64,000 nt of DNA, from the NCBI RefSeq assembly GCF_964355755.1, contig NC_092679.1, positions 17,591,432 to 17,655,431 on the forward strand, written 5' to 3'. Below, one piece after another: positions 4,655 to 45,574 of the stretch; positions within the stretch are counted from its first letter, which is position 1; every line of letters starts with the position of its first letter. The DNA comes from Antedon mediterranea (lineage: Eukaryota > Animalia > Echinodermata). The notes under the pieces are model-generated. The model searched no databases. It worked only from the letters and a program-made list of their open reading frames with translations, and had not been told where the DNA came from. Both the position numbers and the translations under genes were made by a program.

Positions 4655-7600
4655 TTTGATTATTTACATTTAGTTAACTTAGGCATAGACCGCAATTTTC
4701 GAACACAATTAGCCTGTTCGTATAGTCTCCTTGTACAACAATCCTTTTGGTTATTCTAAAATACAATGCTAGAAACAGAAGTATTCCTTTACAAAGCTTG
4801 ATTAAAAAACTGATATAAAGTTAGTTTACTGCTTTCAGTACACAATTTAATCCCAAATTACGACTAGTTCCAATCTTGAAAAAGTTTCAGTTTAGAATTG
4901 GAATAATCACAATCCGATTTGCAGTTTCTTCGGCGCATTCATGGTTGTATTCGACAGAGAGTAATCGTGAAAGTGTGTGTGTGTGAGTTTTCCCATCACC
5001 GAGTCGTGACAAATATTTCTATTGATCAAAAATCCATGTGTCGGAAACGTCATCGGCTAAATCCTATAGGACAATCGTTTTTGTTGCTACGTTACGTGAT
5101 ACAATGGACAAATAGTTTGTTTTGTTGTAATGGTTCGTTGGTCTTATTCTTTTAAATGGATTTAGCAAGAATTATCATACAAAGTTGATGCACAGACGAA
5201 AGGCTAAAATGCTGTATTATCAATAAACACTTCATATCAGTTAAACTTTTCGTTATTTCGGATTGAATGTCAAATGTGAACGCAACGCAATGGAGTTGTT
5301 TTCAATTAATTGATAGCAAAATAATATTAATCACGAATTAAACTATAGTTTTCCATAAAGATAATGATCCAATTATACAGTATTAAGAAAGATCTTTAGC
5401 TATATAACTATAAGTTGTTTGTTACGGTGTAGGTTCAAAACTGTATTTCAACAATATAAGCTAAATATTTCGGCAAATATAGCGTTTCATACGTATAAAA
5501 AATCGAAACGCCGACTGGTGGACTACCCGTTTTATTAGTCTCATATTACTATGTGATTTTTTCTTAAATGCTGTAATATATTATATTGATATAGGCCTAA
5601 TTTCATTTTTATATATGTTTTAAGGATAACCATAAAGTTTTATTGAAGATAATTATTTTTTTTTTTGTGAAAAACCTCGATTGTAGAAAGTGACATGTAA
5701 TAATAATATTCAAGAATTCAAATAGAATGTGGATAGATTTATGCTAAGAAGGAAAATACAAATAAATAGTAGGGCGCGTTCAACAGGAGTTACACAGTGT
5801 GACGTCGTGACATGCTAACTCATAGGGACATGTAGAGAGACATGGGAAGTTCTTTCACTCCATGATCAACACAGTTTTGGTGGATTTTAGGTCAAAGCGA
5901 CGATATGCACAATTAGGTCGTAGGTCACAGGTAGTCACAGACCAAAACCTTCTTAATCTATTTATTTAACAGTAACTTAAGTGTGCAAAATGTGGTTTTT
6001 TTTTTACATTAAGCAATACAGACACATAGGGGGCGCTTGACTTCAACAACTGTACCTTCCAAAAGTATAGTATTTGTAATATATTACGTACTCCACAATA
6101 CTCAAATGTAGGTATTTGAAATTAAACACAAATAATGCACTAGTACAATAACAACGCTTGGTGACATCCTGTCAAGTTTTATTAATTGTTTCTTTATGTA
6201 ATTCCCGGCATGCTATTTCCTGCTGGAGTCATTGCCATTTCTTGAAACTTCTTGTTTTTGGCTGCTAACAGAAAATATTTACTAACTGATACAATACAAA
6301 CAAAATGCTCCAATATTTAATCTTTAATCATCTACTACGATGCAGACAAATTGTTGACAAATACAATTTGATCGAACGCAGATCGATATTAAAATACCAA
6401 GAAGTTGGATAATTACCAGCAGTTCATTTAATAGTACTATATCATACTTCTGTACAAACTACTATAAATTAATGGAAATACCCTTTACTGCATTTTCTTG
6501 TTTAACTTCGGTTTAAATTCTTCTTCAATTCAATTCCTGTCCTATGATTTGCATAATAGACAATTATGTCGTTCTGGGACCGCATCATAATACAATATAA
6601 AAATACCTCCAGAAGGTTACAAAAGCCATGACACATCATCTTTTGTTTTAACATACCTCTATATCCTTCCCTCTATATGCAGCAGATATTAGTAAACCAT
6701 TGACTTTGTATTTCTTTTTAACTCATTTATTCATGCTTTTTCCAGTGGAATGTACGGTTTTTACTGTATATGAAACTTACACACTTGGTTTTCATGTCTG
6801 TTTATTTTTTAAATATTCTAATTCAATTATACACCAATACTACAGTTCGCATTTGCATACGGTTTTAAAGCATCATCTAATATTTATTCAAATTAAATAG
6901 AAGTTTACGTTTATTTCTACAATGGTTCGTGTTATGATTAGACAAACATAATGCTAGAAGTAAAATATACACACTTGAAAGACTTTTTCGACAATAGAAA
7001 CGATAAACGAATTTGCCATTTAAACAGATGTTTAGTTTATTTATTGTTATAATTATAAATTACATAAATAGAAAATGCCTGTATGTATTATGAAAGTACG
7101 TTTTTTTTTATATTTTATTTATTTTTTTCTTTACATCTGAAGACTAAATATTCTGAATGGAAGTTTATTCAAGCATAACGACTTTGTTAGGAATGCTGAT
7201 AATATACAAATAATGAATGTTTATGAGTGTAATGGTACAAATAATGGCAGGAGGTGAATGATGAAAGGGTTATACTCAACGAGGCAAAGCCGAGTTGATA
7301 TACCTTTCGTCATTCACCAAATGCCATTATTTGTACCTTTACACGAATAAAAAACATTCAAGTAGTGTACATGGAGGCCTAGTCAGTCGTGGTTATAACA
7401 ATGGTTAACAATGGGGATAGTATAAGACAATAGAGTATATCATTTAACTAGAATTGTTATATAGATTTGTTATATATTAATATACATTATAATATAAAAT
7501 TAATAAATATTAAATAAAAATGATATGGTTATTTAGTTGCTTGTGATGAGAACAAATGGTTTACATTGGTTGAAGTCAATAGGTGTTATGTTTCGGATTA

Positions 7601-8349
7601 TAATACAATGGTTAACATAGGGTAAGGAAGTGAGACAATATAGTTTTTGTAAGATTTGAATTAGTCATGGATTCAATAAAGATGCACCTGGTTAATTAAA
7701 ACTAGTTAATTGAGGTTTTTGCTTGATGTATGCCGACATAATACAAAGACATAAGTTATTTGATCCGGATATTATAACAATGACTAAAACAAAAAGATAA
7801 GAATGAATAGTTTAAATAGCGTTTACAGGCAAAATATAGGCAAAATTGTAAGTATAAGTCAGATGTACAAATTACTGAAAAACAAATTACTAGGAAGTAT
7901 GAAACAATAGTTATTGTGTTTCGGGGCATATAACAATATATGTTAAAGGTGTCTTCCGACATATAATTAATACGGGGTATTTTATAACAAAGACAAAAAT
8001 AAAAAGAAGACTATAATGAAGTGATATAATAAGTATGTCTTGCTTGATCTTTGGCGACATAATCCAAAGACATAAGGCATTTTCTTCCGGATATTTAGGA
8101 TTTGAAAATAAAGGTTATTTAAGTATGTACAATTAAGTAAATAAAAGGTAATCTTCTGATGTCATGCATAAATTAATTTGTTATGTTTAAATATCGGGGG
8201 GGGGGGGTATTATTTGAAATTCTATGTCAGTGTTTTCAATTACATCGAAGTCACTCAAACTCTAGTACTAGTTCCAAAGTATTACCGTTACACGAGGTTA
8301 AAAGATTAATTCTAACGTGCATACCGGTAATGAACAATAATTTGAAAAC

Positions 8350-8806
8350 AGCAGTCTTAGCGGTAACGAGGAATTTTTGTTAGAAATTCTTGATGACAAC
8401 GATGAATTGGTAAGTTGAATCAATTTGTACAAGAAAAAAAAAAGAAATTTACGTATATTATTTTCCAAATGTTATTAAGATTTAATTTGTTCTGTCTGTT
8501 ACATGGGGTCTTGTTATTTAATTTTCAGATTCGATGTATAGAAGAGTTAATTGATGATCAGAACGAATTATGTAATGAAATGGTAAGTTACTATTTCTAT
8601 AAATTTATTTTTAAAATGGTAATAATATATGATATTTAGTCTAATATAAACAACATTTTGTATTACAGTACGGTATTTTGATTGAAAGTAGTAATAACGA
8701 AAGGGAAGAAACACTTCAATTAGAGAATGACATGGCAGTTGCAGAAATTTGCCGCATTGCAAGAAACAAAAGAGGTAATTTAGACGAAGAAGAAAATGAT
8801 TTATGA
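8350..8806 (+). pseudogene. Spliced small acidic protein gene fragment (left arm): exons ..-8409, 8529-8582, 8669-8806; 5' part disrupted or not identified
   Basis: GTAAGT donors at 8410 and 8583, and acceptors ttttcag (8528) and tattacag (8668), all phase 0. They join EEFLLEILDDNDEL|IRCIEELIDDQNELCNEM|YGILIESSNNEREETLQLENDMAVAEICRIARNKRGNLDEEENDL*. Upstream in-frame stops and no clear ATG. Confidence 0.55.
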
Positions 8807-8823
8807 GTATGATTGCACTTCGA

Positions 8824-8909
8824 CCAATGTTCCGACAGGAAATACAACAATGACAATTGGCTGAAACAAATTTAGTAAATGCCGAATGTAATCCTTTGAC
8901 TGTATATAA
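8824..8909 (+). promoter_or_regulatory. Putative Pol II promoter of the 233-aa ORF (CCAAT boxes and TATA)
   Basis: CCAAT at 8824, ATTGG at 8856 and TATATAA at 8903-8909, about 90 nt before ATG 8994. AATAAA at 9827-9832 follows the stop. Confidence 0.5.
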
Positions 8910-8993
8910 CTCTCGATTATTTTGTAATCTTTACCTCATTCTACAACGCTACAGCGCTCGACAAGACAGACCAAAAACCAACAACTAGTTACT

Positions 8994-9695
8994 ATGGTTT
9001 CCGTGATTGAAATCATTGATCTTACTATGGACTCTGATGTCGAAGAAGATGTTATATATATAAGCAGTGATTCGGAATTTGAAGACGATTTTACAGCAGA
9101 GGAGGAGGAAGAGATGAGGGAAGAGATGGGGGATATGACGTGTTTAATGGCGATTCAACCCCCACCTCCAATGAACGTTGATTTCAATAATGTATCTAAT
9201 ACTGAAGAAGACGAACATTATATATCGAGAATAATTTCTGAAGAGGAGAGGATTGTATACGACGACACGTCATCGGTAGTTGACTACCACCTATTTCTGG
9301 CAAGAAAAGCCGATGTAGAAGATGAGGTAGAAGATGGGGTGTTTGCGGAAGAGTACCTGAACCCTGTGCTGGAGGCGGAGATTAAGAAAGAAACTACCGA
9401 ACTTGAGTACAAAGAAATAATGAGAACAATTGAGAAGGTTTTCATAGAAGAATTTATATTCATTCTGAAGGACATGGTTGAACGTTATAACTTTCACGGC
9501 TCAAGATATGAACAACTCCTAACATTTTTTCGACCAATTCTGGCATTGAAACTTGTGGACAATAGCGCTACCCATTTTGAATGGGCGCTAAACTACTTTC
9601 ATTTACGTTGTATAAATGTTGATGCGTTTGCTAAAGCCATAAAGTTGATTACAAATGATTCAGAACTTTTTAATAAGATTCTTTACCAATTGTAA
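8994..9695 (+). CDS. Intact acidic 233-aa Polinton accessory protein with N-terminal SIM-like motifs (left-arm copy)
   Basis: Longest ORF class in the window, ATG start and single exon. N-terminus VIEIIDLT..VIYISSDSE, acidic middle, predicted helical C-terminus. Confidence 0.75.
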   Translation: MVSVIEIIDLTMDSDVEEDVIYISSDSEFEDDFTAEEEEEMREEMGDMTCLMAIQPPPPMNVDFNNVSNTEEDEHYISRIISEEERIVYDDTSSVVDYHLFLARKADVEDEVEDGVFAEEYLNPVLEAEIKKETTELEYKEIMRTIEKVFIEEFIFILKDMVERYNFHGSRYEQLLTFFRPILALKLVDNSATHFEWALNYFHLRCINVDAFAKAIKLITNDSELFNKILYQL

Positions 9696-9948
9696 TTTGT
9701 ACAAATTTAAAATAATATCTTAACACTTTTCTAATTAATGTTACATATTTTTATAATTCTTATTTCTTTTCGGTAAATTTATTATTATTATGGTTGTAAA
9801 TTATATTGAAATAGAATATGTGTTAAAATAAAGGTTGTGGTTTTTCTTTTAATAGCAACAACAACGAAAATGAATTTGATCTTTGCGTGTTATTTAAGTA
9901 TTTTATTTATTTTTTAAATTTTCATTTGGGTGAATGAGGGTAATGAGT

Positions 9949-10188
9949 ATGGATGAGTACTTAAGAAAAGTATATTACGATCCTAAGCATCCTGATAGTT
10001 TTGGTGGTGTGGACCGACTTTATCAAAATGTAAAATACGATTTAAATATTACCAAGAGACAAGTTCAAGACTGACTGAGCAAGCAAGATACATATACATT
10101 ACACAAATCCATTCAACGTAAATTCAAACGAAACTGGGTACTTGTAAGTGTTATTGATGAACAATGGGGAATGGATTTGGAAAAATAA
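9949..10188 (+). pseudogene. Polinton/Maverick retroviral-like integrase N-terminal remnant (left arm)
   Basis: Manual translation gives MDEYLRKVYYDPKHPDSFGGVDRLYQNVKYDLNITKRQVQD*LSKQDTYTLHKSIQRKFKRNWVLVSVIDEQWGMDLEK*. This fits the YYDP..SFGGV..LY / WL..QDTYTLHK / IDEQW..DL signature. Internal TGA at 10072-10074; truncated just after the first catalytic Asp. Confidence 0.88.
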
Positions 10189-10200
10189 CGTGTATAAAAT

Positions 10201-10345
10201 TTGATTCAGACAAACTGTTTGACTTTAAATTTCCAAAAATCAAAGGAAGTCAATTTTGAAATAGTTGGTAGCATGGTACAAGGAATCGGACTGGAAAAAA
10301 TAACAACAACTAATCCTAACAAAATAACCCGTAAACCAAAATCTC
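10201..10345 (+). pseudogene. Probable C-terminal fragment of Polinton protein-primed DNA polymerase B (left arm)
   Basis: CLTLNFQKSKEVNFEIVGSMVQGIGLEKITTTNPNKITR resembles the pPolB C-terminal pattern GfTLNf.nS..iNFe.vk.lV....kItv.NP.KItR. Recognised by eye only. Confidence 0.55.
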
Positions 10346-11449
10346 ACTCTCTACCATTCAAAAATGATGTAGCGATTTTTTCAAGCGGTATTGTCATGAA
10401 CGTATTGAAAAGAAAATAGTTTTATTGTCAATGATTTGTCAAGTGTTTTATTTTAATTTCAATTACTGTTGTATTGTATTTAGTTTTACCCGTTCATGTT
10501 GGCATGATCAATATTTGCTCAAACTCCATTTTATCGTTATGTTTGTAGTATTTTATAGATTCCCGATCATCGTAATAATGATATAACTAGAATTCGTAAC
10601 CGTGTGTTAGATTCCACGCGTATTATATACATATTGTCTTACTTTAATTCCTTCTCTCGTTATTCACCCGATGTAGTTTGATCAAACAATTGTACCTGAG
10701 CCTGAAAGGTTAGTTGTTATGGTACAAGGAATCGGCCCGGAAAATAATTTGTTTTCTTTTCTGTTAAATTATTATTATGTTTGTGAATTGTGTATTGCAA
10801 TAGATTTGTTTAATGAAATTAAATTAATTAGGCCTATGTTTTGACTTAATTTACTGTCAGTGTAAATTTTTTAAAGTAGTTTTCCTACTTTAATTCACGG
10901 TAAATTTATTTATCGACTTAATTTAATTTGTTTTCTTTTCTGTTGTTGTTAAATGTAATTGCAAACACACGTAATAAATGATTGTGATTATAAATATTCT
11001 GTTTACTTCTTTTAATTTTAAACAGTACAATAGATCTGTAATGTAAAGTTATATTTTATATATAATAAGTAATATTACAAAAATAAACATACAAAATGTA
11101 TAAAGCATAGATTAATTAAATTTAAATACAATTTCTTTATTTCAAAATGAATTTCATTTTCTACGTGTTTTCAATTTTAAATCTTTTAAGAAAGACACAA
11201 TACGTACTGCTAAAAAAATAAAACGCACACAAAAGAAAACAAATTTGAGACGCACGATATGTAACGACGGTTTCAATAAAAAGGCATATTATAAATGTAT
11301 TTTTACCAAATTTATAAAGTAAAGGGTTATTATTGAGAAATATACATTTTAGATAAATGATAACACATCTAAAATTAATTAGAGAGATCAATACAATATG
11401 GTGTTCATAATAATTTGTTTTGATGACTAGAGGAAACATCTGAAGACAT

Positions 11450-11885
11450 TCAACAAAAAACAAGCGTTAACACCATACCAGTCACTAAGAATGCTACTAC
11501 TCTGAAAAAAACATCTCCCTTCCAGCACAGAAACAAATTCTGAACGAAAATAAAAAATAAAAATAATTAGTAAACGAAACACGCGCATTATAAATAAAAT
11601 GAATAATTTAAGAAAAAAAAAAAGAAACATACTAACCGATTTATCGTCATTACGAAGTTCAAATAACGAAAACTTTTCCTTGAAAAATTCACAAGAGACA
11701 CGTTTTACATTTTCTAACTGCATTTCAGTGTCACATTGTTTCGCAACACATGTACATACAACGAGTCCTGTCACAAATCTGCCGACATTTATTTTTTTAT
11801 CGCTCATCATTTGTTCTAATACATAATACAGCGCTTCCGAAGAAATATCTTTACACAATTCTAACACATTAAAATTGTTTTCCAA
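11450..11885 (-). pseudogene. Bcl-2-family-like gene, 5'-truncated, two exons (11885-11637, 11539-11450), in the palindrome spacer
   Basis: BH1-like VLEQMMSDKKINVGRFVTGL. A GTTAGT donor at 11636 and a pyrimidine-rich acceptor ending CAG at 11540 splice in frame to NLFLCWKGDVFFRVVAFLVTGMVLTLVFC*, a C-terminal hydrophobic anchor. Confidence 0.7.
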
Positions 11886-12668
11886 CTTTTAAATTTAATT
11901 AATCTATGCTTTATACATTTTGTATGTTTATTTTTGTAATATTACTTATTATATATAAAATATAACTTTACATTACAGATCTATTGTACTGTTTAAAATT
12001 AAAAGAAGTAAACAGAATATTTATAATCACAATCATTTATTACGTGTGTTTGCAATTACATTTAACAACAACAGAAAAGAAAACAAATTAAGTTAAGTCG
12101 ATAAATAAATTTACCGTGAATTAAAGTAGGAAAACTACTTTTACAAATTTACACTGACAGTAAATTAAGTCAAAACATAGGCCTAATTAATTTAATTTCA
12201 TTAAACAAATCTATTGCAATACACAATTCACAAACATAATAATAATTTAACAGAAAAGAAAACAAATTATTTTCCGGGCCGATTCCTTGTACCATAACAA
12301 CTAACCTTTCAGGCTCAGGTACAATTGTTTGATCAAACTACATCGGGTGAATAACGAGAGAAGGAATTAAAGTAAGACAATATGTATATAATACGCGTGG
12401 AATCTAACACACGGTTACGAATTCTAGTTATATCATTATTACGATGATCGGGAATCTATAAAATACTACAAACATAACGATAAAATGGAGTTTGAGCAAA
12501 TATTGATCATGCCAACATGAACGGGTAAAACTAAATACAATACAACAGTAATTGAAATTAAAATAAAACACTTGACAAATCATTGACAATAAAACTATTT
12601 TCTTTTCAATACGTTCATGACAATACCGCTTGAAAAAATCGCTACATCATTTTTGAATGGTAGAGAGT

Positions 12669-12813
12669 GAGATTTTGGTTTACGGGTTATTTTGTTAGGA
12701 TTAGTTGTTGTTATTTTTTCCAGTCCGATTCCTTGTACCATGCTACCAACTATTTCAAAATTGACTTCCTTTGATTTTTGGAAATTTAAAGTCAAACAGT
12801 TTGTCTGAATCAA
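12669..12813 (-). pseudogene. Mirror copy of the probable pPolB C-terminal fragment (right arm)
   Basis: ORF 12595..12813 is identical in translation to 10201..10419. Confidence 0.55.
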
Positions 12814-12825
12814 ATTTTATACACG

Positions 12826-13065
12826 TTATTTTTCCAAATCCATTCCCCATTGTTCATCAATAACACTTACAAGTACCCAGTTTCGTTTGAATTTACGTTG
12901 AATGGATTTGTGTAATGTATATGTATCTTGCTTGCTCAGTCAGTCTTGAACTTGTCTCTTGGTAATATTTAAATCGTATTTTACATTTTGATAAAGTCGG
13001 TCCACACCACCAAAACTATCAGGATGCTTAGGATCGTAATATACTTTTCTTAAGTACTCATCCAT
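12826..13065 (-). pseudogene. Mirror copy of the integrase N-terminal remnant (right arm)
   Basis: Reverse complement of 9949-10188, including the same premature TGA. Confidence 0.88.
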
Positions 13066-13318
13066 ACTCATTACCCTCATTCACCCAAATGAAAATTTAA
13101 AAAATAAATAAAATACTTAAATAACACGCAAAGATCAAATTCATTTTCGTTGTTGTTGCTATTAAAAGAAAAACCACAACCTTTATTTTAACACATATTC
13201 TATTTCAATATAATTTACAACCATAATAATAATAAATTTACCGAAAAGAAATAAGAATTATAAAAATATGTAACATTAATTAGAAAAGTGTTAAGATATT
13301 ATTTTAAATTTGTACAAA

Positions 13319-14047
13319 TTACAATTGGTAAAGAATCTTATTAAAAAGTTCTGAATCATTTGTAATCAACTTTATGGCTTTAGCAAACGCATCAACATTT
13401 ATACAACGTAAATGAAAGTAGTTTAGCGCCCATTCAAAATGGGTAGCGATATTGTCCACAAGTTTCAATGCCAGAATTGGTCGAAAAAATGTTAGGAGTT
13501 GTTCATATCTTGAGCCGTGAAAGTTATAACGTTCAACCATGTCCTTCAGAATGAATATAAATTCTTCTATGAAAACCTTCTCAATTGTTCTCATTATTTC
13601 TTTGTACTCAAGTTCGGTAGTTTCTTTCTTAATCTCCGCCTCCAGCACAGGGTTCAGGTACTCTTCCGCAAACACCCCATCTTCTACCTCATCTTCTACA
13701 TCGGCTTTTCTTGCCAGAAATAGGTGGTAGTCAACTACCGATGACGTGTCGTCGTATAAAATCCTCTCCTCTTCAGAAATTATTCTCGATATATAATGTT
13801 CGTCTTCTTCAGTATTAGATACATTATTGAAATCAACGTTCATTGGAGGTGGGGGTTGAATCGCCATTAAACACGTCATATCCCCCATCTCTTCCCTCAT
13901 CTCTTCCTCCTCCTCTGCTGTAAAATAGGCACCAGTCATAGCTAGTATGTCTTCGTCTTCAAATTCTGAATCACTGCTTATATATATAACATCTTCTTCG
14001 ACATCAGAGTCCATAGTAAGATCAATGATTTCAATCACGGAAACCAT
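13319..14047 (-). CDS. Intact acidic 242-aa SIM-motif accessory protein (right-arm copy)
   Basis: Near-identical to 8994..9695, with an in-frame 27-bp extra segment and two amino-acid substitutions (V/L, S/I). Confidence 0.75.
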   Translation of the reverse strand: MVSVIEIIDLTMDSDVEEDVIYISSDSEFEDEDILAMTGAYFTAEEEEEMREEMGDMTCLMAIQPPPPMNVDFNNVSNTEEDEHYISRIISEEERILYDDTSSVVDYHLFLARKADVEDEVEDGVFAEEYLNPVLEAEIKKETTELEYKEIMRTIEKVFIEEFIFILKDMVERYNFHGSRYEQLLTFFRPILALKLVDNIATHFEWALNYFHLRCINVDAFAKAIKLITNDSELFNKILYQL

Positions 14048-14234
14048 AGTAACTAGTTGTTGGTTTTTGGTCTGTCTTGTCGAGCGCTGTAGCGTTGTAG
14101 AATGAGGTAAAGATTACAAAATAATCGAGAGTTATATACAGTCAAAGGATTACATTCGGCATTTACTAAATTTGTTTCAGCCAATTGTCATTGTTGTATT
14201 TCCTGTCGGAACATTGGTCGAAGTGCAATCATAC

Positions 14235-14695
14235 TCATAAATCATTTTCTTCTTCGTCTAAATTACCTCTTTTGTTTCTTGCAATGCGGCAAATTTCTGC
14301 AACTGCCATGTCATTCTCTAATTGAAGTGTTTCTTCCCTTTCGTTATTACTACTTTCAATCAAAATACCGTACTGTAATACAAAATGTTGTTTATACAGT
14401 ATTAGACTAAATATCATATATTATTACCATTTTAAAAATAAATTTATAGAAATAGTAACTTACCATTTCATTACATAATTCGTTCTGATCATCAATTAAC
14501 TCTTCTATACATCGAATCTGAAAATTAAATAACAAGACCCCATGTAACAGACAGAACAAATTAAATCTTAATAACATTTGGAAAATAATATACGTAAATT
14601 TCTTTTTTTTTTCTTGTACAAATTGATTCAACTTACCAATTCATCGTTGTCATCAAGAATTTCTGACAAAAATTCCTCGTTACCACTAAGACTGC
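14235..14695 (-). pseudogene. Mirror copy of the spliced acidic IxCxE gene fragment (right arm)
   Basis: Reverse complement of 8350-8806 with the splice sites retained. Confidence 0.55.
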
Positions 14696-15195
14696 TGTTT
14701 TCAAATTATTGTTCATTACCGGTATGCACGTTAGAATTAATCTTTTAACCTCGTGTAACGGTAATACTTTGGAACTAGTACTAGAGTTTGAGTGACTTCG
14801 ATGTAATTGAAAACACTGACATAGAATTTCAAATAATACCCCTCCCCCCCCCCCGATATTTAAACATAACAAATTAATTTATGCATGACATCAGAAGATT
14901 ACCTTTTATTTACTTAATTGTACATACTTAAATAACCTTTATTTTCAAATCCTAAATATCCGGAAGAAAATGCCTTATGTCTTTGGATTATGTCGCCAAA
15001 GATCAAGCAAGACATACTTATTATATCACTTCATTATAGTCTTCTTTTTATTTTTGTCTTTGTTATAAAATACCCCGTATTAATTATATGTCGGAAGACA
15101 CCTTTAACATATATTGTTATATGCCCCGAAACACAATAACTATTGTTTCATACTTCCTAGTAATTTGTTTTTCAGTAATTTGTACATCTGACTTA

Positions 15196-18100
15196 TCTAT
15201 ATATAAATTTACGTAAGGGCAAAATTCGGTAAATCGCGCCTTACTTCTAGAATTTTCACTCGATGGTATGTAAAGTTGGTTCGTACTTTCGGTACTGATT
15301 TTAACCGCCTGATGTAACCCTGTTTACTAATTAAATTGAGTTAAATAATTAGTTATTGACGATTAAAACGAATTTAGGTTAAACGATTTGCCCCAAATAG
15401 GGGTGTTTTCCGATCGTGGTATACACTGTCTAATGGATGTCCGTCTTGAAAAATACCCGCCAAAAAAATGCGAGGAGGCTTCGCATTTTTCTATCTCCTC
15501 CTACGATAATTGTTTTTAATTGCTGAAAACCGGTTGAACAGCTAGAGTACACCATCATAATGTTGAAGACAGGCCGATTTTCTTTAAAAAATACTATTTT
15601 GATAGATTTAATATACGATTATACAAATGTATTGATTTGCGATGAATGGAACATCCCAATCTCTCAGTCTGCCAGAGTTTGGTTTAACACAAGTACTGTA
15701 GGTAAATTTATGAGCCCTTGAACACATACGGTAGGTAAATATATGGGCCCTTTGAGAATAAACTTGCAATACTTTGACAATACTGTAAATACCTATTAAC
15801 TATTTTTGGTCCTCATTTGAATCGAGCATTTCTTAGAATGTTCGTACTGTTAGATGTAATATAAAAATATATACAAATAAACTTTATTACTGAGACTGTG
15901 GATAGGCTCTACTGTTAGATATACAAATAAACTTTATACTGACAGTTCCTTCTCAACGTTTGTATTAATTAATAATTACCAAAAATATAAACGTCGTAGT
16001 GGTGTATCGTGACATGTACTTTAATATTTCAATTGATTATGACAGTGATAGTTTTAACAAAGTATTAAATCGCAAATGTTTTAGGCCTACTGTATTTAGA
16101 GGTATATTATTTATAGGCCTATAAAACATGAACAAAATATTTCGTTACTCAGTGGATAAAGAATATATTTAAAAATTGTTCCTCTTTGTACCTATCCGCT
16201 TTCCCATCCCTCAACCCTAATGTTACATAGCGAGGAGGCTTCGCATTTTCTTATCTCCTCCTACGATAATTGTTTTTAATAGCTGAAAACCGGTTGAACA
16301 GCTAGAGTACACCATCATAATGTTGAAGACAGGCCGATTTTCTTTAAAAAATACTATTTTGATAGATTGCTAGAGTACACCATCATAATGTTGAAGACAG
16401 GCCGATTTTCTTTAAAAAATACTATTTTGATAGATTTAATATACGATTATACAAATGTATTGATTTGCGATGAATGGAACATCCCAATCTCTCAGTCTGC
16501 CAGAGTTTGGTTTAACACAAGTACTGTAGGTAAATTTATGAGCCCTTGGTTTAACACATACGGTAGGTAAATATATGGGCCCTTTGAGAATAAACTTGCA
16601 ATAGGTTCGGAAAATGTTAAAAACCAATTTCTATTATTTGAATCGGTAAACAGTTTCCATTTATTATACATTGATAATGAAACATGAAATATTCCTATTT
16701 ATGTCCCTCGAGGTTCATTACAATTTATATTTAGTAGTCCCACGGACTTCATCTTAGCCACTCCCCCGAGTTCTAAGGCCAAATTTATGATACCCTACTT
16801 TCTATGTAAGTTTAGTTACAGTTAGTTCTTGACGATAATACAACGAATTTAGGTTACACCCTTCGGCCGCGAAAACGTTTCTGTACAAATATGATACCGA
16901 TTGGCTTTATTTCATTCAACAGCGACCATAATCTCGCCAATTACAGGATAGATAAACTATTTTATTATTGATGTGCTTATAAATTAAGACTCATGTAAAC
17001 AGCTTGATTACATCATTTTACAGACAAACGAAACTTTTAAACCTACTGTTTCAATAACTGAGTATAATACTGTATACGTTTTCATAAGTAAGTGCATATA
17101 CATTTTCGTGTTTTCATTGACGAGATTGTAATAGTAACTTCAGTAACTATTACAGTACTTATTTATTATACGATACAAGACAATTGTATCTGACAGGTAC
17201 GTACATTATTCTAAAAAATAAGTCTAGATAGATCCCTTAGGCGTCATAAATCACAGGCCAACAAATCAGTACTCATGACAGAAATTCGACCCAGTTTGGT
17301 TCACACAAATGTTTACAGGAATTTCAACACCACAACCGATGATTTGCCCTAAATATTTAGGTAGACTACAGTTTAATTTTTCACTGAATAGGAGCTTGCA
17401 TTTCCGATTTTCATTTCGCAGAATGTCTAGGTCTATTTATTTAGTTTGGTTCTTATAATATATAAATACAATCAACTTTATTACTGCGGTTCCATCACCA
17501 CCACCACGTGTCGCCCAATTCCCGTACATACATTTCCATTTCTCCCTAATTTCTTTAATCTATATATAAATTTACGTAAGGGCAAAATTCGGTAAATCGC
17601 GCGTTATTTCTAGAATGTGTACTCGATGGTATATAAAGTTGGTTATAATCTCGGTACTGATTTTAACCACCTGATGTAACCCTGTTTACTAATTAAATTT
17701 AGTTAGATAATTAGTTATTGACGATTAAAACGAATTTAGGTTCAACCATTTGCCCCAAATAGGGGTGTTTTCCGATCGTGGTATACACTGTCTAATGGAT
17801 GTCCTCATGAAAAATACCTGTACACAATAATACGAGGATACTTCGCATTTTCCTATCTCCTCCTACGATAATTGCTTTTAATAGCTGAAAACCGGTTGAA
17901 CAGCTCGAGTAGAGTATCATAATGTTGAAGACAGGCCGATTTTCTTTAAAAAATACTATTTTGATAGATTTAATATACGTTTATACAAATGTATTGATTT
18001 GCGATGAATGGAACATTCCAAATTATTTGGTTTAACCATGCTTGCATACCTCCATGATTTAACACAAGTAGGTCAATTTATGGGCCCTTTGAGAATAAAC

Positions 18101-18965
18101 ATAAATAGTATTGTAAAGCTATACAATACTGTAAATAGGTATTAACCACTTTTGATAGCCATTTGAATCGCAAATTTCTTATTGTGTGCGTTGGTAGGCC
18201 TACTGTTTATTATAATATAAACAAATATACTAATAAACTTTATTACTGTGAGTGTGGGTAGCCCCTACTTTTAGATTATAAACACATAATAATATAATAC
18301 TTTATTACTGACAGTTGCTTCACAACGTTTGTATTAATTAATAATTACAAAAAAATATAAACGTCGTGGTGGTGTATCGTTACATGTACTTTACTATTTC
18401 AATCGACTATGACAGTGACAATTTTAACAGTTATTAAATCGGAAATGTTTTACTCTATTTAGTGTTATGTTATTTATAGGCCTATTAAAAAAAAAACCCA
18501 ACCCTCAATAATGTTAGATACAAAATACAAATTGGGTTTGTTTAAACATTTGGACTCATTTTGTGAGAAGTTTCTCTTTTGGAAGTAATTCGCACGGTGC
18601 TAATTTTGGTTGACTACATAAATACATAAATAAATGTTTTATAGTCATGCGGTACGTAGGCCTACATTTTGAAATCGCCAGTTTTTTTACGCTGAAATTA
18701 CTATGTATTCGATAACCATATGTGGGCACGACCTAGATGGTACGCGAGCGAAGCGAGCGTACCATCTAGTCCACATAAATTAATTGTCCTTTATGGAATT
18801 CAGTATTGGTTTTGTTGTCTCTATTTCTGAATACCCCAATTAGGGGGACACTTCCGTTTTTGTTTAGTGTCCCAAAAAAGTCCCCGTCCGTGGATTCTAC
18901 TGTATTCGAGAACCATCTGTGAGCACCCCTAGATGGTACGCGAGCGAAGCGAGCGTGCCATCTAG
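15196..18965 (+). mobile_element. Non-autonomous Helitron inserted in the right arm
   Basis: Starts TC at 15196 and ends CTAG at 18965 after the hairpin gatggtacgc-gagcgaagcga-gcgtgccatc. It is inserted between A and T with no TSD; the left arm shows the empty site (acttatacttac on the reverse strand). Confidence 0.9.
17559..18769 (+). mobile_element. Second Helitron of the same family nested inside the first
   Basis: The same 5' end tctatatataaatttacgtaagggc occurs at 17559 after an A, and the same hairpin plus CTAG ends at 18769 before a T. Confidence 0.85.
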
Positions 18966-20265
18966 TACTTACAATTTTGCCTATATTTTGCCTGTAAACG
19001 CTATTTAAACTATTCATTCTTATCTTTTTGTTTTAGTCATTGTTATAATATCCGGATCAAATAACTTATGTCTTTGTATTATGTCGGCATACATCAAGCA
19101 AAAACCTCAATTAACTAGTTTTAATTAACCAGGTGCATCTTTATTGAATCCATGACTAATTCAAATCTTACAAAAACTATATTGTCTCACTTCCTTACCC
19201 TATGTTAACCATTGTATTATAATCCGAAACATAACACCTATTGACTTCAACCAATGTAAACCATTTGTTCTCATCACAAGCAACTAAATCACCATATCAT
19301 TTTTATTTAATATTTATTAATTTTATATTATAATGTATATTAATATATAACAAATCTATATAACAATTCTAGTTAAATGATATACTCTATTGTCTTATAC
19401 TATCCCCATTGTTAACCATTGTTATAACCACGACTGACTAGGCCTCCATGTACACTACTCATTCATTATTTTTTTTATATAACATCTAAATAGATTCCTG
19501 TCATTTGAATCAAATTAAAGGTAGCCCTAGCCTGGCCTTCATTTAATTCACATTGGCCTAGCCTAATAATAACAGACCTAGTACACAATAGGTGGCGCTG
19601 TTGAAGTTCAAAGGCAATAGTCCGTAAAAAACAAAATATTTCCAAACGCGAAAACGCGAAAAGATTTTTTTTCCGTACACGAAAAAAAGTACTAGTAAAC
19701 AATCGTTTAATAGTGCGTACTATTGAACGCCATGTGACCCACATTCGTTCAATCAATTGACAGGAATCTATTTAGGTGTTATATAATATCCTTTATAAGT
19801 ATCCTATAAACTTGATTAAAGGGTAGCTCCGGCTTCTACAGAGTCAACTTCTTTGGATCGACAAAAAGAATATTAATTTTTATCTTATCGTAATATTTAT
19901 GTAGCACCATTTTTCCGTTCTGCTTAACCGCTGACGAAAAACAAGTGAGGTTTTTTTTTTATCAATGTTGTTCCAAACTTTTATATTTTATAATAAACAA
20001 TAGAAAGTAGTCCGGAACTACTTTTTAAGCATCCTTTTTTTTTAAACTTGATTAATTACATAATAATACTTTCATGATATTAGTAAAACATTGAAGTAGC
20101 TAAATTAGCATTGTCACCATAGAGATTATAATGTTGTAACTAGTGACAATTCAAGCGTGGCACAATGCTGGTAATTAATTTAATAATGAATATTATACAA
20201 TATAGTGACTGTTAGTTGAATGGAGAGTGCAACAGTCAACGAATAGCAATATTCGTTCCATTTAA

Positions 20266-26355: not shown

Positions 26356-27160
26356 TATGTCATTGGGGTTGTAACTATTGTAACAACTTGTGTGTAAGCT
26401 TACTGGCAATGACGCATGCGCAGTTTGATTTCTAGAATATAAATTATGGATCGGATTCCTGTGTAGTCACATTTAAATATTACAGATTGGTGGTTGGTAT
26501 GCAATTAGAACCATCATTGTTCAAGGTTGTCAATCAATCAAATAACATATTTCATGATATGATATTTAAATTTTAAGAAAGAAGCGGGCGAATCCAACCG
26601 AATAGGCCAAAAAAAAAAACGCTTTACGCGTTGGAGTTTAAAGGTCAACTTTACTATGGTTTTTAGTAAAACGGTCCTCTAAATTTCTTAGGTGTTACTT
26701 CAATAATAGAAAATAAACATTTATAGCTCATCTTCGTTACTGTAATCATTGGGTTGACATGCTTAGCCATATGGCAAAATAATTATATCTTCATTTTACT
26801 GTCTTATAAATATTTATTTACACGTTACTCAAAGAAATTTACCGCACATAAACATATTGGTAATCAGGAGTAGATAACCATGGAGTAAAGAATAATTATT
26901 CTTTACTCCATGAGATAACATACATAGCTACCTATTATAAAACTGAAAAAACACTTCAGGATTACATAAGGTCATATACTATTACTATATACATAATATT
27001 AATAAATATTTATTTCTCTTTACACAAAGACATTTTTCTGAACATAAAAATGTTAATCTGCGTTATATATAATCAGACAGCCACCGTTCCGTAACAAAAT
27101 CATTGGTCTAACTTACAAAATGAGAATGTAATGAGTATACTGTAGTCAACGCATACGTTA

Positions 27161-30100
27161 AGTGCTTTTACAAAATAACGAATGGAGTTCAGTTGGCTTT
27201 AGTTTACTTTATTTCAAGGTAAGTGATATTCATCAATAAAACAAAATTTAATTTTCTTAAATTTACAGTAAGAAAATAAACTTCTGGATTTATTTTTTCT
27301 TTTCTATACTATTTGGAACATTTTCTGTAGTTTTTTTGTAAACTTTATATAATTAATTCAGTTTTATCTACTTATAAATAGTAATCCCCGAAACCTTGAA
27401 ATACCGGGATGGTGTCCGGCGGGGGATAGCTTCACCATGTAATATAAGTTCTATTTATTTTTTATTAACTGAAAACATTTCAATGTAAATGTTTTTATAT
27501 GTTTACAAATGACAATAAATTTGCTTGACTTGACTAGTGCATTTTCTTAAAATGTAGTTGAAGTATGGTTTTGTTCAATATGTCAGCAATTTTATGCTAA
27601 TTTTGTTAGGTTAGCAAAGTCCTCCATTGTGGGAGATGACTTACATCCTAGAAACGAGTTATTCTCATTAATACGGAGCGGTCGACGCTATAAATCTATA
27701 TCTACCTAACAAATAGGTCATTGAACAGTTTTTTTCCGTCAGCCATTAGGGCACTCAATGACCAGTAATGTGTGATCAAAGATGAATGCAAAATGTTGTA
27801 TATGTAACTAATTGTATATTTGATTATTTATTAACACTGGAACCAATCAATTTTCTATATATGTATATTTAATGTCGGACAGAATCAAGTATTGTATTGT
27901 TGAAACTCTACTTTTGCGATGATATAGTATTCAATGAAAAAAATACAAATTAAGCAAAAGTTAAGATACTTGCAAAATGCAGAGGGCGTGCTATTAATAT
28001 TTTGGTCTATATTGAAGATACAGATAACTCGAGATTTTAATAAGATTTTGTGATGATGTCACCAATATATCTTTTTCCTGAAATCAATAGGCATGATAGG
28101 TTGGTGTCTATTAGCAAAACTAATCAAGAAATCTGTGGAAGTTATCGTGCAAACTTACAAAAACATTGATACTTATTAGAATGCTTTGGAGCATTTTGCC
28201 AAAGTATTTTATCTTTAAACTTGACATGTAAAACAATAATGTATCGTACAAACTGAGACACATAAAGCAGGTAATAAACATTTAACAAGCAAAATCGTGA
28301 ACGTAAATACGAGCGAAATTAGTTAAAAGAAGAAGAAAAACATCAGAGATAATTTTGATTCCTTAATTAATTTATTTTGCAAATACACAGAATAATTTTT
28401 TTAAAGTCTGGTCACACTCTCGTTATTACGCCTACATCATTTTACACTTACTTACGTACATACTGTATAAAGCGTGGTTCCCACTAGCGACGCAACGCAA
28501 GGACGTAACGCAACGCAAGTGATTGACCAATCACAAGCGATGGCTTATTCGCTTGTGATTGCTAACTGTCTATAACTTCGCTGGTCATTGGTTAAAACGC
28601 TTGCGTTGCGTTTACGTCCTTGCGTTACGTTCTAGTGGGAACCAAGCTTAAGGGATACCCGAGTATGTGTCTTCTGAGTATAGTGGTGTCTCCGAAGAGA
28701 GTGGTTCTATACTGTCCATAGAATGCAGTTTCTAGGCTATAGTGTTTTGATATTTGTTTAGATATCTGTAGATTCATTTCATAGACAATGATAATTATGT
28801 ACGACATTTAAATAACCTTTTGACATTTTGACCGTTTTGTGGCAGAATCATCATAATCGTTATAATTGTGACTTACTGGTAACTGACTGGTAACCGCTGT
28901 ATGAACTTACAAATGGAGTAAAACTTTACGTAATTAAACAAGAATTCTGTAATACTATAGACAGTCACATTAATTTCTATTTGATCTTTTATATAAATCT
29001 ATTCATCGTCGTTACACCATAAGTATGATAAATGCGTACTGTACATTAATAGATGAATTAAACGTTATTAATATTAGGGGGTTTTCGATTTGTGGCGACA
29101 CACGACCTGGAACAAGTTGGGACAATTGATGTGTCGTTGGTTGTCGCATGGGCCTCTAGACACAACCAAAACTTCCTTAATATAACGTCCTCGCATGCGC
29201 ACAATTAATTAATAGTCATCGGTCCGACGCGTATTATAAAACTGAATGGTCCTTTTGGAGGCCAAGCAGATACTCGGTTAATGCAAGCGATGTGTATAGG
29301 ATGGTACTCGCTTAAGTTCGCGTAAATTGTTCTGAAAAATATATACCGGTAGTAGAATAACAAATAGCAAATAACCCCAATTTTATTACATATCAAAATG
29401 TGAAAAACTTTCTAGAAAAGATCAGAAAAACATGAAAAACCAATAATATTAAATATTATACTATTTAATACTATATTAAAAACTATTGAAATCCTTAAGT
29501 TTTTTTTAGATTTAGAAAACACCTTAACCAGCAGAATTCAAATTTAGTAATTTTATCTTAAAATACATTCTTAAACTCAGTTAAGTTTAATGTATTTCAG
29601 GTCAAGAAACCATAAACAATATTAATTTAAGGCATACTGAAAAACCCCGTTTTAAGGCAAAGGGAATGCTACATGTCATGCACTATGTCGCCATCCATTT
29701 AATGGTATGTTCACACGTACGACGCAAATAGTAAGGTAATTCACGGATTAAAATACCAAGGTGTTCACACGTACGGTGTACGTTATATTAATAAATTGCG
29801 TTAAGCTCAGTTCCCACGATCGGTTTTTTTCTTCCGTCTTCCAAAGGGACACTGTATTGATTGATGGAAAGTGCCTGTTTCCAGTCACCTTTAGGGTCAA
29901 ATCTATTATTTTAACTGCTCCCTTGTGTATAAAAGAGAGAAAATAGTGACTTATAATTAAACACACAATTCTGAGCCCCCTACTATTTGGTGTGAACAGA
30001 TTGGCATACTATAACTTATTATTATTATTCTTTATTTGGTCCAATTAAAAAAAATACATCAGAAATTCCTCTTATATACACTGCAGAGATAGTAACAAAT

Positions 30101-33100
30101 ATTCATACAAAATACAAATCAAATACAAATGTCGACGATTTCACTCCATTTCGAAGTGAGGAGGACACGAATTGATGTTCGGATGAAAGTATGTGTAAAA
30201 CTGTGGCATGACGGCGAAAAAAATTGTTGTTCCTCTCTTCTCATAGGCCTATATGGTTTTAATCTCTCTTATTATTTCCTAATTTCTTTTTACTCTCTTC
30301 CCAATTTCATACTAAATGCTGAAAGCGACAAAGAGCGCGCTATATCGGTCCATATTATATAAGACACTGATAATTTGAGGCTTTTGTGACGTCACAAACA
30401 TATATTTTCTGATAATCAATGGATATGTTTTTTATCGTGCAAACAAAATGATATTTAACATGGTTGTCACAAACATTTGCACCGCCCTATTTTTAATACT
30501 TTACAAAACGATGTTATTTTTGATATTATAACATTATTTCCCAACCTGCAGACGACAGGTTAATTTAATTTTATGTTGACCAATTCCATACTTTAGCCTA
30601 ATAAAGTTTTATCGAGGTTAAACATACGAATTATCAACACATTAAACATTTCAGTTTGTTGCTTTCAAGCTTTTCCATTTTTTTTACCTTTTCAATTACA
30701 TTGAATTTGAAGAAAATTAATATTTAACCAAAAGCGGTCTATATCTTGTGGGGTCTTGTACATACAACTTGTGTTAACATTTATAATCTGTGTTTAGTAG
30801 CGTCAGAGGACGCCAATTCTATAACAGCTTTTTTATCGCCTGCTTTGTACAATGATTTGATAATACCACGTATATGTGAAAAACTCATATCGTTCTTTAA
30901 TTAATATGTATACATTTTTATTACGTCCTTCCTAGAAATGTATATAAAACTCATCGAACTCACGAACCTTTGCACTCGCCCTTTTGTTATATTCTACAAA
31001 ACGATGTTATTTGTGATATTATAACATTATTTCCCAACCTGCAGAAAAAAGGTTACTTTAATTTAATATTGACAAATTTCATATTTTATCCTAGTTTTTA
31101 TCGAGGTCAACCCATTGGCCTAAATTTCAGTTCGTTGCTTAGGTTTTTTGTGGTGTTTTTTTTTCAATTTCTTACATTGAATTTGAAGAAAATAAATATT
31201 TATTGAATGAATGAGTGAGTGTTAAGTTTAAACTTAAAAAGGGCTCACTATATGAGAATGTTTACCAGGCGCATTGAGTGCTTTTACAAAATAACGAATG
31301 GAGTTCAGTTGGCTTCAGTTTACTTTAGTCTCAAGGTAAGTGATATTCATTATCCCCGAAATCTCGACTAAGAAATACCGGAATGGTGTCCAGCGGGGGA
31401 TAGTTTATTACCATTAGTTAGGGTCTAATGTAAAGCACCTAGATGGGTCAGTTACCCATTAGGCGCTATATAAATATTGTTTATTATTATTATTAATATC
31501 AAAAAAACAAAATTAAATTTTCTTAAATTTGCAGCAACAAAATAAATTTCTGGATCAATTTGTTCTTTTCTATTTGGAAATTCATATAATTAATTCAGTT
31601 TTATCTACTTATAAATAGTAATCCCCGAAACCTTGAAATACCGGGATGGTGTCCGGCGGGGGATAGCTTCACCATGTAATATAAGTTCTATTTATTTTTT
31701 ATTAACCGAAAACATTTCAATGTAAATGTTTTTATATGTTTACAAATGACAATAAATTTGCTTGACTTGACTGGTGCATTTTCTTAAAATGTAGTTGCAG
31801 TATGGTTTTGTTTAATATATCAGCAATGTTATGCTAATTTTGTTAGGTTAGCAAAGTCCTCCATTGTGGGAAATGACTTACATCCTATAAACGAGTTATT
31901 CTCATTAATACGGAGCGGTCGACGCTATAAATCTATATCTACCCAACAAATAGGTAATTGAACAGTTTTTTTTCCGTCAGCCATTAGGGCACTCAATGAC
32001 CAGTAATGTGTGATCAAAGATGAATGCAAAATGTTGTATATGTAACTAATTGTATATTTGATTATTTATTAACACTGGAACCAATCAACCAATCAAACTG
32101 AAACACATAAAGCAGGTAATAAACATTAATAACAAGCAAAATCGTGAACGTAAATACGAGCGAAATTATAGTTAAAAGAAGAAGAAAAACATCAGAGATA
32201 ATTTTGATTCCTTAATTAATTTATTTTGCAAATACACAGAATAATTTTTTAAAAGTCTGGTCACACTCTCGTTATCACGCCTACATCATTTTACACTTAT
32301 TTACGTACATGCTGTTGTATAAAGCGTGGTTCTCACTAGCGACGCAACGCAAGGACGTAACGCAACGCAAGTGAATTGACCAATCAAAAGCGATGGCTTA
32401 TTCGCTTGTGATTGCTAACTGTCTATAACTTCGCTGGTCATTGGTTAAAACGCTTGCGTTGCGTTTACGTCCTTGCGTTACGTTCTAGCGTTACGTTCTA
32501 GTGGGAACCAAGCTTAAGGGATACCCGAGTATGTGTCTTCTGAGTATAGTGGTGTCTCCGAAGAGAGTCACGAGAGTGGTTCTATACTGTCCGTAGAACG
32601 CAGTTTCTAGGCTATAGTGTTTTGATATTTGTTTAGATATCTGTAGATTCATTTCATAGAAAATGATAATTATGTACAACATTTAAATAACCTTTTGACA
32701 TTTTGACCGTTTTGTGGCAGAATCATCATAATCGTTATAATTGTGACTTACTGGTAACTGACTGGTAACCGCTGTATGAACTTACAAATGGAGTAAAACT
32801 TTACGTAATTAAACAAGAATTCTGTAATACTATAGACAGTCACATTAATTTCTATTTGATCTTTTATAGAAATCTATTCATCGTCATTACAGCATAAGTA
32901 TGATAAATGTGTACTGTACATAAATAGATGAATTAAACGTTATTAATATTAGGGGGTTTTCGATTTGTGGCGACACACGACCTGGAACAAGTTGGGACAA
33001 TTGATGTGTCGTTGGTTGTCGCATGGACCTCTAGACACCACCAAAACTGTCTTAATATATAACGTCCTCGCATGCGCACAATTAATTAATAGTTATGTCA

Positions 33101-34996
33101 TCGGTCCGACGCGTATTATAAAACTGAATGGTCCTTTTGGAGGCCAAGCAGATGTATAGAATGGTACTCTCTTAAGTTCGCGTAAATTGTTCTGAAAAAC
33201 ATATACCGGTAGTAAAATAACAAATAGCAAATAACCCCAATTTTATTACAGATCAAAATGTGAAAAACTTTCTAGAAAAGATCAGAAAAACATTTAAAAA
33301 AACAATAATAATAAATATTATACTATTTAATACTATATTAAAAACTATTGAAGTTTTTTTTTTAGATTTAGAAAACACCTCAACCAGCAGAATTCAAATT
33401 TAGTAATTTTATCTTAAAATACATTCTTAAACTCAGTTAAGTTTAATGTATTTCAGGTCAAGACATGGAAACATAAATAATATTAATTTAAGGCATACTG
33501 AAAAACCCCGTTTTAAGGCAAGTGTATGCTACATGTCATGCACTATGTCGCCATCCATTTAATGGTATGTTCACACGTACGACGCAAATAGTAAGGTAAT
33601 TCACGGATTAAAATGCCAAGGTGTTCACACGTACGGTGTACGTTATATTAATGAATTGCGTTAAACACACAAGTCCAAGTTTGAGCCCTTACTATTTGGT
33701 GTGAACAGATTGGCATACTATAACTTATTATTATTATTCTTTATTTGGTCCAATTAAAAAAAATACATCAGAAATTCCTCTTATATACACTGCAAAGATA
33801 GTAACAAATTATACATACAAAATGCAAATACAAATGTCGACGATTTCACTCCATTTCGAAGTGAGGAGGACACGAATTGATGTTCGGATGAAAGTATAAT
33901 GTGTAAAACTGTGGCATGACGGCGAAAAAAATTATTGTTCCTCTCTTCTCATATATGCTTTTAATCTCTCTTATTATTTCTTAATTTCTTTTTACTCTCT
34001 TCACAATTTCGCTGAAAGCGACAAAGGGCGCGCTACTTAATATTTCGGTCCATATTATATAAGACACTGATAATTTGAGGCTTTTGTGACGTCACAAACA
34101 TATATTTTCTGATAATCAATGGATACAGTATGTTTTTTATCGTGCAAACAAAATGATATTTAACATGATTGTAATGTTTTATCACAAACATTTGCACCGC
34201 CCTATTTTTAATATTTTACAAAACGATGTTATTTTTGATATTATAACATTATTTCCCAACCTGCAGACGACAGGTTAATTTAATTTTATGTTGACCAATT
34301 CCATACTTTAGCCTAATAAAGTTTTATCGAGGTTAAACATACGAATTATCAACACATTAAACATTTCAGTTTGTTGCTTTCAAGCTTTTCCATTTTTTTT
34401 TACTTTTCAATTTCATACATTGAATTTGAAGAAAATTAATATTTAACCAAAAGCGGTCTATATCTTGTGGAGTCTTGTACATACAACTTGTGTTAACATT
34501 TATAATCTGTGTTTAGTAGCGTCAGAGGACGCCAATTCTATAACAGCTTTTTTATCGCCTGCTTTGTACAATGATTTGATAATACCACGTATATGTGAAA
34601 AACTCATATCGTTCTTTAATTAATATGTATACATTTTTATTACGTCCTTCCTAGAAATGTATATAAAACTCATCGAACTCACGAACCTACGAACCTTTGC
34701 ACTCGCCCTTTTGTTATATTCTACAAAACGATGTTATTTGTGATATTATAACATTATTTCCCAACCTGCAGAAAAAAGGTTACTTTAATTTAATATTGAC
34801 AAATTTCATATTTTATCCTAGTTTTTATCGAGGTCAACCCATTGGCCTAAATTTCAGTTCGTTGCTTAGGTTTTTTGTGTTTTTTTTCTTCAATTTCTTA
34901 CATTGAATTTGAAGAAAATAAATATTTATTGAATGAATGAGTGAGTGTTAAGTTTAAACTTAAAAAGGGCTCACTATATGAGAATGTTTACCAGGC
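27161..34996 (+). repeat. Tandem segmental duplication (27161-31270 and 31277-34996)
   Basis: Both units start agtgcttttacaaaataacgaatggag and end gagaatgtttaccaggc. The duplicated spurious ORFs 28625/32491 and 30970/34697 confirm the pairing. Confidence 0.92.
28471..28648. mobile_element. Harbinger-type MITE (second copy near 32323-32514)
   Basis: TIR agcgtggttcccactag / ctagtgggaaccaagct with TAA TSD. Confidence 0.75.
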
Positions 34997-45054: not shown

Positions 45055-45056
45055 TT

Positions 45057-45574
45057 ATAGTCCAGTAAAATATCACCTTCACCATTGCATAACGTTAGTA
45101 GTCAACGAGATTCTCACCGTAGGTTCTAAACATTATGTAAAGATCATTTATTGATGTTGCGTCGCGTAAAAGTTGGGATTTGTGGAGAAAATGAAGTTTT
45201 TATACGCAGTTTTTGCTTCCTTTCGTCGTGGTTTGTTTTCATCGAAAAATGACGTCATGGGGCATAAGTGAATGACACGCCATTGTCGACATTTGCGTTC
45301 GTATTAAAAAGTGAATTTTAAATGTACGAATATGGTATTAATTATCTGTATTACATTGTATTATTATGTATCACATATATAACAAGTCATTTTGATAAAA
45401 AATAAGTCAAATAAATATGAAAAACAAAGGAAAATTGTGATTGTAATTGTGATCCCAACTTTTACGCGACGCAACATCAATAAATGATCTTTACATAATG
45501 TTTAGAACCTACGGTGAGAATCTCGTTGACTACTAACGTTATGCAATGGTGAAGGTGATATTTTACTGGACTAT
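45057..45574. mobile_element. MITE with near-perfect TIRs of about 120 bp
   Basis: atagtccagtaaaatatcacc...aaagttgggat is mirrored by atcccaacttt...ggtgatattttactggactat. Confidence 0.85.

Follow-up and report, generated by a model that had tools for sequence, protein, structure and literature searches.

Polintons, or Mavericks, typically end in the motif (AGT)2//(ACT)2 or (AG)3, and in 134 intact vertebrate elements their terminal inverted repeats (TIRs) span 46–1,447 bp with a mean of 402 bp (PMC8097293). The stretch of echinoderm DNA analyzed here, 64,000 nucleotides of Antedon mediterranea (contig NC_092679.1, positions 17,591,432 to 17,655,431; hereafter the window), contains at 7361-19459 an element that resembles autonomous Polintons in its (AGT)2//(ACT)2 ends, its 6-bp target-site duplication (TSD), its rve-type integrase ancestry, and its accessory genes near an end, but differs from them in having no intact core gene and in deriving both of its ends from one parental end. 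Its arms, 3,766 bp long, are 2.6 times the longest TIR in the vertebrate set (PMC8097293). The Polinton ends and TSD, the loss of core genes, and the presence of multicopy relatives mark it as a non-autonomous Polinton derivative.

Copy-back and snap-back defective viral genomes, of which the copy-back kind is known mainly from negative-sense RNA viruses, likewise carry a terminus copied as its reverse complement, form a panhandle whose loop is short and unique, and depend on a helper, as is proposed here (PMC13506859). Both ends of the present element come from one terminus and enclose a unique parental loop, which is the arrangement that defines a copy-back genome; unlike those genomes the element is DNA and integrated, and its origin in replication is inferred. 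Extended-TIR (2RT) copies of Galileo and other foldback transposons are comparable in that internal sequence near one TIR has been recruited to the other end and the copies are non-autonomous, but Galileo is a cut-and-paste element of the P superfamily with TIRs up to about 1.26 kb, and its extension is attributed to chromosomal repair (PMC3573991). Virophage and Polinton-like virus (PLV) fragments in Halocafeteria are poor in core genes, keep their TIRs and TSDs, and have been suggested to be moved by the proteins of complete copies, but their palindromes are short terminal ones (52 nt) and do not take in the whole element (bioRxiv 10.64898/2026.07.28.741278). We found no description of a whole-element palindromic Polinton in the literature covered, including the available parts of PMC11414722, PMC3014272, PMC6431247 and PMC5499653 (the founding Polinton papers and Repbase fall outside this scope), and, within the same scope, no direct description of a replication copy-back step in Polintons. 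Expansion of Polinton inverted repeats is stated as reported, with three papers cited, among them Jurka et al. 2007, in the available part of PMC3573991, and a prior description of such elements is possible. The inverted repeats of a near-complete Polinton-type contig (L043:1-10447) are about 0.4 kb long and 88% identical.

Structure of the element

The element begins with AGTAGT and ends with ACTACT, and self-BLAST pairs 7361-7854 with 19459-18966 at 99.8% identity and 7854-11126 with 15196-11888 at 98.7% identity with gaps, the alignment ending exactly at the element termini. Global alignment of arm to arm gives 9 substitutions and 3 indels over 3,766 bp (0.24%); the indels are of 4, 5, and 27 bp, and the extra bases are always in the right arm. 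From left to right, the element consists of a left arm (7361-11126, forward strand), which alignment to family contigs places colinear with a multicopy family through 11126 into the spacer; a unique 761-bp spacer (11127-11887) of native parent sequence; a derived join (11887-11888) at which the parent sequence ends and an inverted copy of 11126-7361 starts; and a right arm (11888-19459, reverse strand), which is this inverted copy, interrupted by a Helitron. The order is thus the first 4.5 kb of the parent followed by an inverted copy of the parent's first 3.77 kb, and the arms make up 91% of the 8,329 bp remaining once a 3,770-bp insert is removed. The initial annotation of this stretch, made from the letters alone, had described AGTAGT termini, a CATTCA TSD, 3.77-kb arms, and a 761-bp spacer, and had suggested a self-comparison; reading the ends and aligning the element to itself bears out each of these and recovers both inverted arms to their termini.

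The sequence CATTCA stands on the forward strand on both sides of the element (7355-7360 and 19460-19465); given the flank composition, its recurrence at a given site by chance has a probability of 3.5e-4. The insertion target was a high-copy sequence resembling a miniature inverted-repeat transposable element (MITE) at 7199-7360, whose depth is 88,000 against 33 in the flank (public run X1, see below) and whose right terminal repeat is split, its final 6 bp lying at 19466-19471. When the two flanks are joined they match the other end of the MITE at 15 of 15 bases. Because the insertion split the MITE terminal repeat and the bases past the right TSD complete the MITE end, the flanks were once adjacent. 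The terminal 20-mer has no internal copy within 5 edits, the terminal 19-mer has no match in viral or metagenome contigs, and Rfam gave no match. Just one of the nine arm differences falls within the outermost 695 bp, which agrees with arms of a single age (p = 1.0, a test of little power). A divergence of 0.24% would correspond to roughly 0.1–0.6 million years if each site is assumed to change at 1e-8 to 2e-9 per year and gene conversion is ignored.

Helitrons start with TC, finish with CTAG after a hairpin, and insert between A and T without a TSD. The 3,770-bp insert of the right arm (15196-18965, forward strand) starts with TC, finishes with a hairpin and CTAG, and is placed between A and T; both of its ends are duplicated internally, giving two 5'-like and two 3'-like ends. 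By these features, all of which agree with the Helitron that the initial annotation had placed in one arm, it is classed as a composite non-autonomous Helitron, and it arrived after the arms had formed.

Polinton ancestry and core genes

The left arm carries the N-terminal 77 codons of a Polinton-type integrase (9940-10179, forward strand), with an in-frame stop at 10072. With X written at the stop, the fragment matches 25 of 35 candidate proteins, the best at 81% identity; every one of the 25 homologues has rve (PF00665), and many also have chromo. Homology ends at 10179 in 24 of them and at 10215 in the remaining one. With 77 of about 355 codons and an internal stop, the gene is not intact. 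Just downstream, 10204-10368 (forward strand) is probably what is left of the C-terminal end of a protein-primed DNA polymerase B. Of 1,284 tiles of the window compared with a profile of polymerase B C-termini, this one gives the top match, a weak one (E 0.089); tested against seven query tails, its score was reached by none of 500 shuffles for two of them, by 7 and 10 of 500 for another two, and gave no signal for three. The integrase fragment and the polymerase-tail remnant recur in mirror image at 12646-13074 on the reverse strand.

We also compared the element with 31 profiles built from the open reading frames (ORFs) of 87 integrase-bearing loci. The identity of the ATPase profile was assigned by Pfam and that of the protease by motif; the minor capsid was assumed from gene order, and the major capsid rests on weak Pfam matches in two of eight members together with gene order. 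Only the integrase profile matches strongly (E 5e-25), with four others marginal (E 0.015–0.09), and the ATPase, protease, capsid, and full-length polymerase profiles in this set do not match the element. A tblastn search with one polymerase and the BLOSUM45 matrix likewise gave no match. None of the 87 loci is a close relative at the DNA level, alignment being confined to the integrase stretch at 65–79% identity. The absence of capsid, ATPase, and protease genes reported in the initial annotation is upheld by the profile search, with one refinement to its description of the contents as mainly cargo: the arms also keep a broken integrase fragment and probably a polymerase tail. The Polinton origin that it had proposed is supported by the integrase fragment, the end motifs, and the 6-bp TSD, and the fragment in particular shows a Polinton integrase ancestry.

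The parent family

The public runs compared here consist of assembled contigs, and contig depth is not a true copy number. Part of the stretch is present in 18 of the 20 public runs listed, from four organisms, with a share above 0.2 in 11; runs with small shares whose contigs were not aligned to the window do not enter the comparison. Runs X1 and X2, which come from one sample, possibly the source of this DNA, match the left flank of the element without a difference, and the depth of the element is 5 to 83 times that of the flank, depending on the region. Family contigs leave the match to the window at 11887 and continue with common letters that are not those of the arm in X2, X5, X6, X8, and X9 (five runs, three organisms, and four studies, three of these outside the possible source study). 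The run-on is at least 255 letters in X9, 81 in X6, and 11–18 in X2, X5, and X8, and in X2 the continuing form has about 31 times the flank depth. The boundary at 11126 is crossed as in the left arm in X9 (41 + 76 letters), and in X2 at about 18 times the flank depth, with fewer than 31 letters on one side. The parent is colinear with this copy through arm and spacer and beyond; therefore the 11887|11888 join is the new feature. The 3.77-kb arms are accordingly a derived feature of this copy and not the native ends of the family. The initial annotation had recognized that parents natively bearing 3.8-kb TIRs would undo its interpretation; for this join that objection fails, as the contigs pass both 11887 and 11126, and its claim that one parental end was duplicated in inverted orientation agrees with the family continuity and the alignment of the arms.

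An X1 contig covering 9873-10078 at about 8 times the flank depth differs from the window at two positions, 9916 and 10036. These differences spare 10072, and the integrase stop therefore appears to be common to the family (10072 being near the contig end). Probably, then, the immediate parent had a truncated integrase and was itself non-autonomous before the palindrome formed, a point absent from the initial annotation. The ratio of terminal to subterminal depth across about 8056 is 2.9, 1.8, 3.2, and 7.8 in four runs (a drop of 1.8- to 7.8-fold), and this depth step weakly hints that 7361-8055 may correspond to an ordinary native TIR of the parent family, about 0.7 kb long.

Family copies vary in other ways. 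The region 8056-8791, which includes a predicted small spliced gene, is far shallower than its neighbors in X6, where one contig has unlike upstream sequence; it is a variable subterminal cassette in the family. Family contigs have a 178-bp tandem step-back at 10768-10945 (depth 4,553 in X2) and a 209-bp skip at 7806-8014 between two similar 56-bp repeats, both of them structural variants among family copies.

Origin of the palindrome

Four positions (7446, 7743, 8955, and 9731, among 40 of 341 difference rows) have an allele common to both arms from which all aligned contigs in four runs differ. Such arm-private alleles imply that the arms descend from one molecule or were homogenized by conversion, and since 7446 lies 86 bp from the end, copying ran almost to the terminus. 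In X2 the window alleles keep a residual depth, relative to the flank, of 2.07 and 1.99 at sites 8307 and 8338, both common to the two arms, of 3.88 at a third such site (8998), and of 1.13 at the left-arm-only site 9074, values that weakly hint at a single two-armed locus. The 11887|11888 join is not a common family form. The locus appears to be a single insertion and not an amplified satellite; the satellite class suggested in the initial annotation gains no support here, as no second copy of the join is seen and the depth fits one locus.

In our judgment the most likely cause, with about an even chance, is that a parent already crippled had one of its ends copied back upon itself before integration. 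That estimate concerns an inferred mechanism; it starts from an observed geometry, parent continuity, common arm origin, and later Helitron. Strand-displacement replication from a protein-primed end, with the polymerase supplied in trans, would have started at the left end. The polymerase would have abandoned its template at 11887, taken up the complementary strand at 11126, and returned to the end from which it set out; the product would have been linear, with an authentic left end at each extremity. A helper integrase acting in trans would then have inserted the palindrome, giving the 6-bp TSD, and the Helitron would have entered the right arm afterwards. These steps draw on protein-primed strand-displacement replication as it is generally understood. 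Further background on protein-primed replication can be found in the available part of PMC11161782. The private allele at 7446 in both arms, together with the lack of an older outer zone (a comparison of low power), favors copy-back.

Several observations weigh against this account. Gene conversion between the arms could equally explain their common alleles; three of the four runs have greater depth in the inner regions than at the termini, a pattern not predicted by a simple short-TIR parent; and the other end of the parent is not seen in the family contigs. No contig bridges 11887|11888, the bin depth in X2, X5, and X9 is exactly what the lack of a bridge predicts, and none of the eight pieces listed, of 18, bridges the join in X8. 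Contigs lose rare variants between deep neighbors, however, and the missing bridge is therefore not evidence of absence. No second copy with another TSD occurs among the contigs, and nothing places the palindrome outside the chromosome. Microhomology at the junction was dismissed, since a 9-of-10 inverted match near the join could have arisen by chance (p 0.07–0.29).

Copy-back before integration stays unproven because two chromosomal routes give the same product. By the first of them, an ordinary family member would have inserted with its CATTCA TSD, and a later break or large deletion would have been repaired in situ: the right end would have invaded the left terminal repeat, been extended by 3.77 kb of sequence copied inward from there, and been rejoined at 11887. 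The TSD would be retained, a single locus would be expected, and the arm-private alleles could predate the copying at the locus; such an extension was proposed for Galileo by Marzo et al., who state that Polinton inverted-repeat expansion has been reported (PMC3573991). The shared allele at 7446 requires, however, that copying began no more than 86 bp from the end or that conversion followed; no older, more diverged outer zone is apparent, if with low power; and the longest Galileo TIRs in that work measure about 1.26 kb (PMC3573991). We regard repair in situ as unlikely, though far from negligible. The alternative route starts from a parent that already formed a palindrome, its arms exceeding 4.5 kb, of which this copy lost the center and the inner right arm; the palindrome would then be older and family-wide. 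Asymmetric central deletion is a known fate of long chromosomal palindromes, the run-on past 11887 and the native crossing of 11126 are expected equally in this case, and depth in the inner regions equals or exceeds that at the termini. The step in depth at about 8056, present in four of four runs, fits short native TIRs, although diverged subterminal cassettes give the same step, and among the loci of at least 4 kb in the set of 87 no inverted repeat exceeds about 0.4 kb (most are partial contigs of distant relatives). A central deletion strikes us as improbable but worth keeping in view.

That the family normally has 3.8-kb arms around a 761-bp center might be suggested by its multicopy state in several organisms. 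This is largely refuted for the present join: the form running on past 11887 in X2 has about 31 times the flank depth and the join is in no contig, the join cuts a Bcl-2-like gene, and window-type alleles stand at about 2 times the flank depth at two of three common sites checked. We give it very little weight. An assembly artefact, or two independent head-to-head insertions, would agree with the finding that no aligned contig bridges the join, yet a fold-back read would not give arms that are set apart by 9 substitutions, 3 indels, and a Helitron; the TSD matches and the MITE end is restored; private alleles are common to both arms; and the X2 depth is 1.1 times the flank at the left-arm-only site 9074, about 2 times at 8307 and 8338, and 3.9 at 8998. 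Such an explanation seems to us highly improbable.

Implications

Replication of animal Polintons has so far been deduced from gene content, and this locus adds a visible parent and a breakpoint, without a second insertion. A wider proposal, which we put forward tentatively and with less than even confidence, is that animal Polintons shed copy-back palindromic genomes during extrachromosomal protein-primed replication, that helpers integrate them, and that this locus would be the founding event of a gene-poor palindromic lineage, caught with its parent and breakpoint in view. A whole-element palindrome with a clean TSD and a recognizable parent and breakpoint makes the replication model countable: under copy-back, such products should turn up at a number of loci, each with its own TSD and with joins that recur, and under repair the site itself should have full-length alleles. 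Surveys based on an integrase and a polymerase lying 4–40 kb apart (PMC8097293) would miss such elements. Should the palindrome be a chromosomal rearrangement that happened only once, it would be no more than a curiosity.

Accessory genes

The remaining predicted genes lie in the arms and the spacer. A small spliced acidic gene is predicted at 8339-8806 on the forward strand (introns 8410-8528 and 8583-8668; exon model drawn by eye); it is mirrored in the right arm and has no protein-family match. An acidic ORF encodes 233 aa in the left arm (8994-9695, forward strand) and 242 aa in its mirror copy in the right arm (13319-14047, reverse strand), the left-arm version being without 27 bp that are present in the right arm and in family contigs. 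Its N-terminus has what we take to be motifs of the SUMO-interacting type. No relatives were found among 396 candidates or 1.84 billion representatives, nor in viral contigs, Pfam, or PHROGs; its Atlas matches all score 0.87 or less and were not used as evidence.

A 5'-truncated Bcl-2-like gene is predicted at 11450-11888 on the reverse strand, with an intron at 11636-11540 and a hydrophobic tail exon at 11539-11450. The fragment matches Pfam PF00452 over profile positions 21-86 of 100 with E 3.2e-5 and 24.8 bits, below the curated cut-off of 31.4. Its reading frame stays open up to the join, which cuts the gene. No Bcl-2 chain was matched in the PDB, and none of nine candidates in the protein search was a match. 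Bcl2 homologues occur in adintoviruses, according to the available part of PMC8502044. One of the integrase-type loci has, just upstream of its Polinton-type integrase, a 168-aa ORF with a hydrophobic C-terminus (L002:927-1430) and no Bcl-2 Pfam match; its weak similarity to the Bcl-2-like fragment (32% identity over 37 aa, E 0.24 against all loci) was not counted.

Other features of the window

The rest of the window contains several repeats. A tandem duplication of about 3.7–4.1 kb occupies 27158-34996 (27158-31270 against 31274-34996, 92–94% identity with indels), and a nested inverted structure at 43410-45574 includes an imperfect 1.2-kb self-inverted segment (43719-44946) alongside two inverted 123-bp copies that match perfectly (45057-45179 and 45452-45574). 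A perfect 417-bp tandem duplication at 56103-56937 is either very recent or an assembly duplication. On the reverse strand, 38065-38697 holds a 210-aa open frame that by eye resembles the C-terminus of a LINE reverse transcriptase and has no Pfam match. A 17-bp minisatellite of 35 copies lies at 59841-60431, followed at 61744-62259 by a degenerate CAT repeat.

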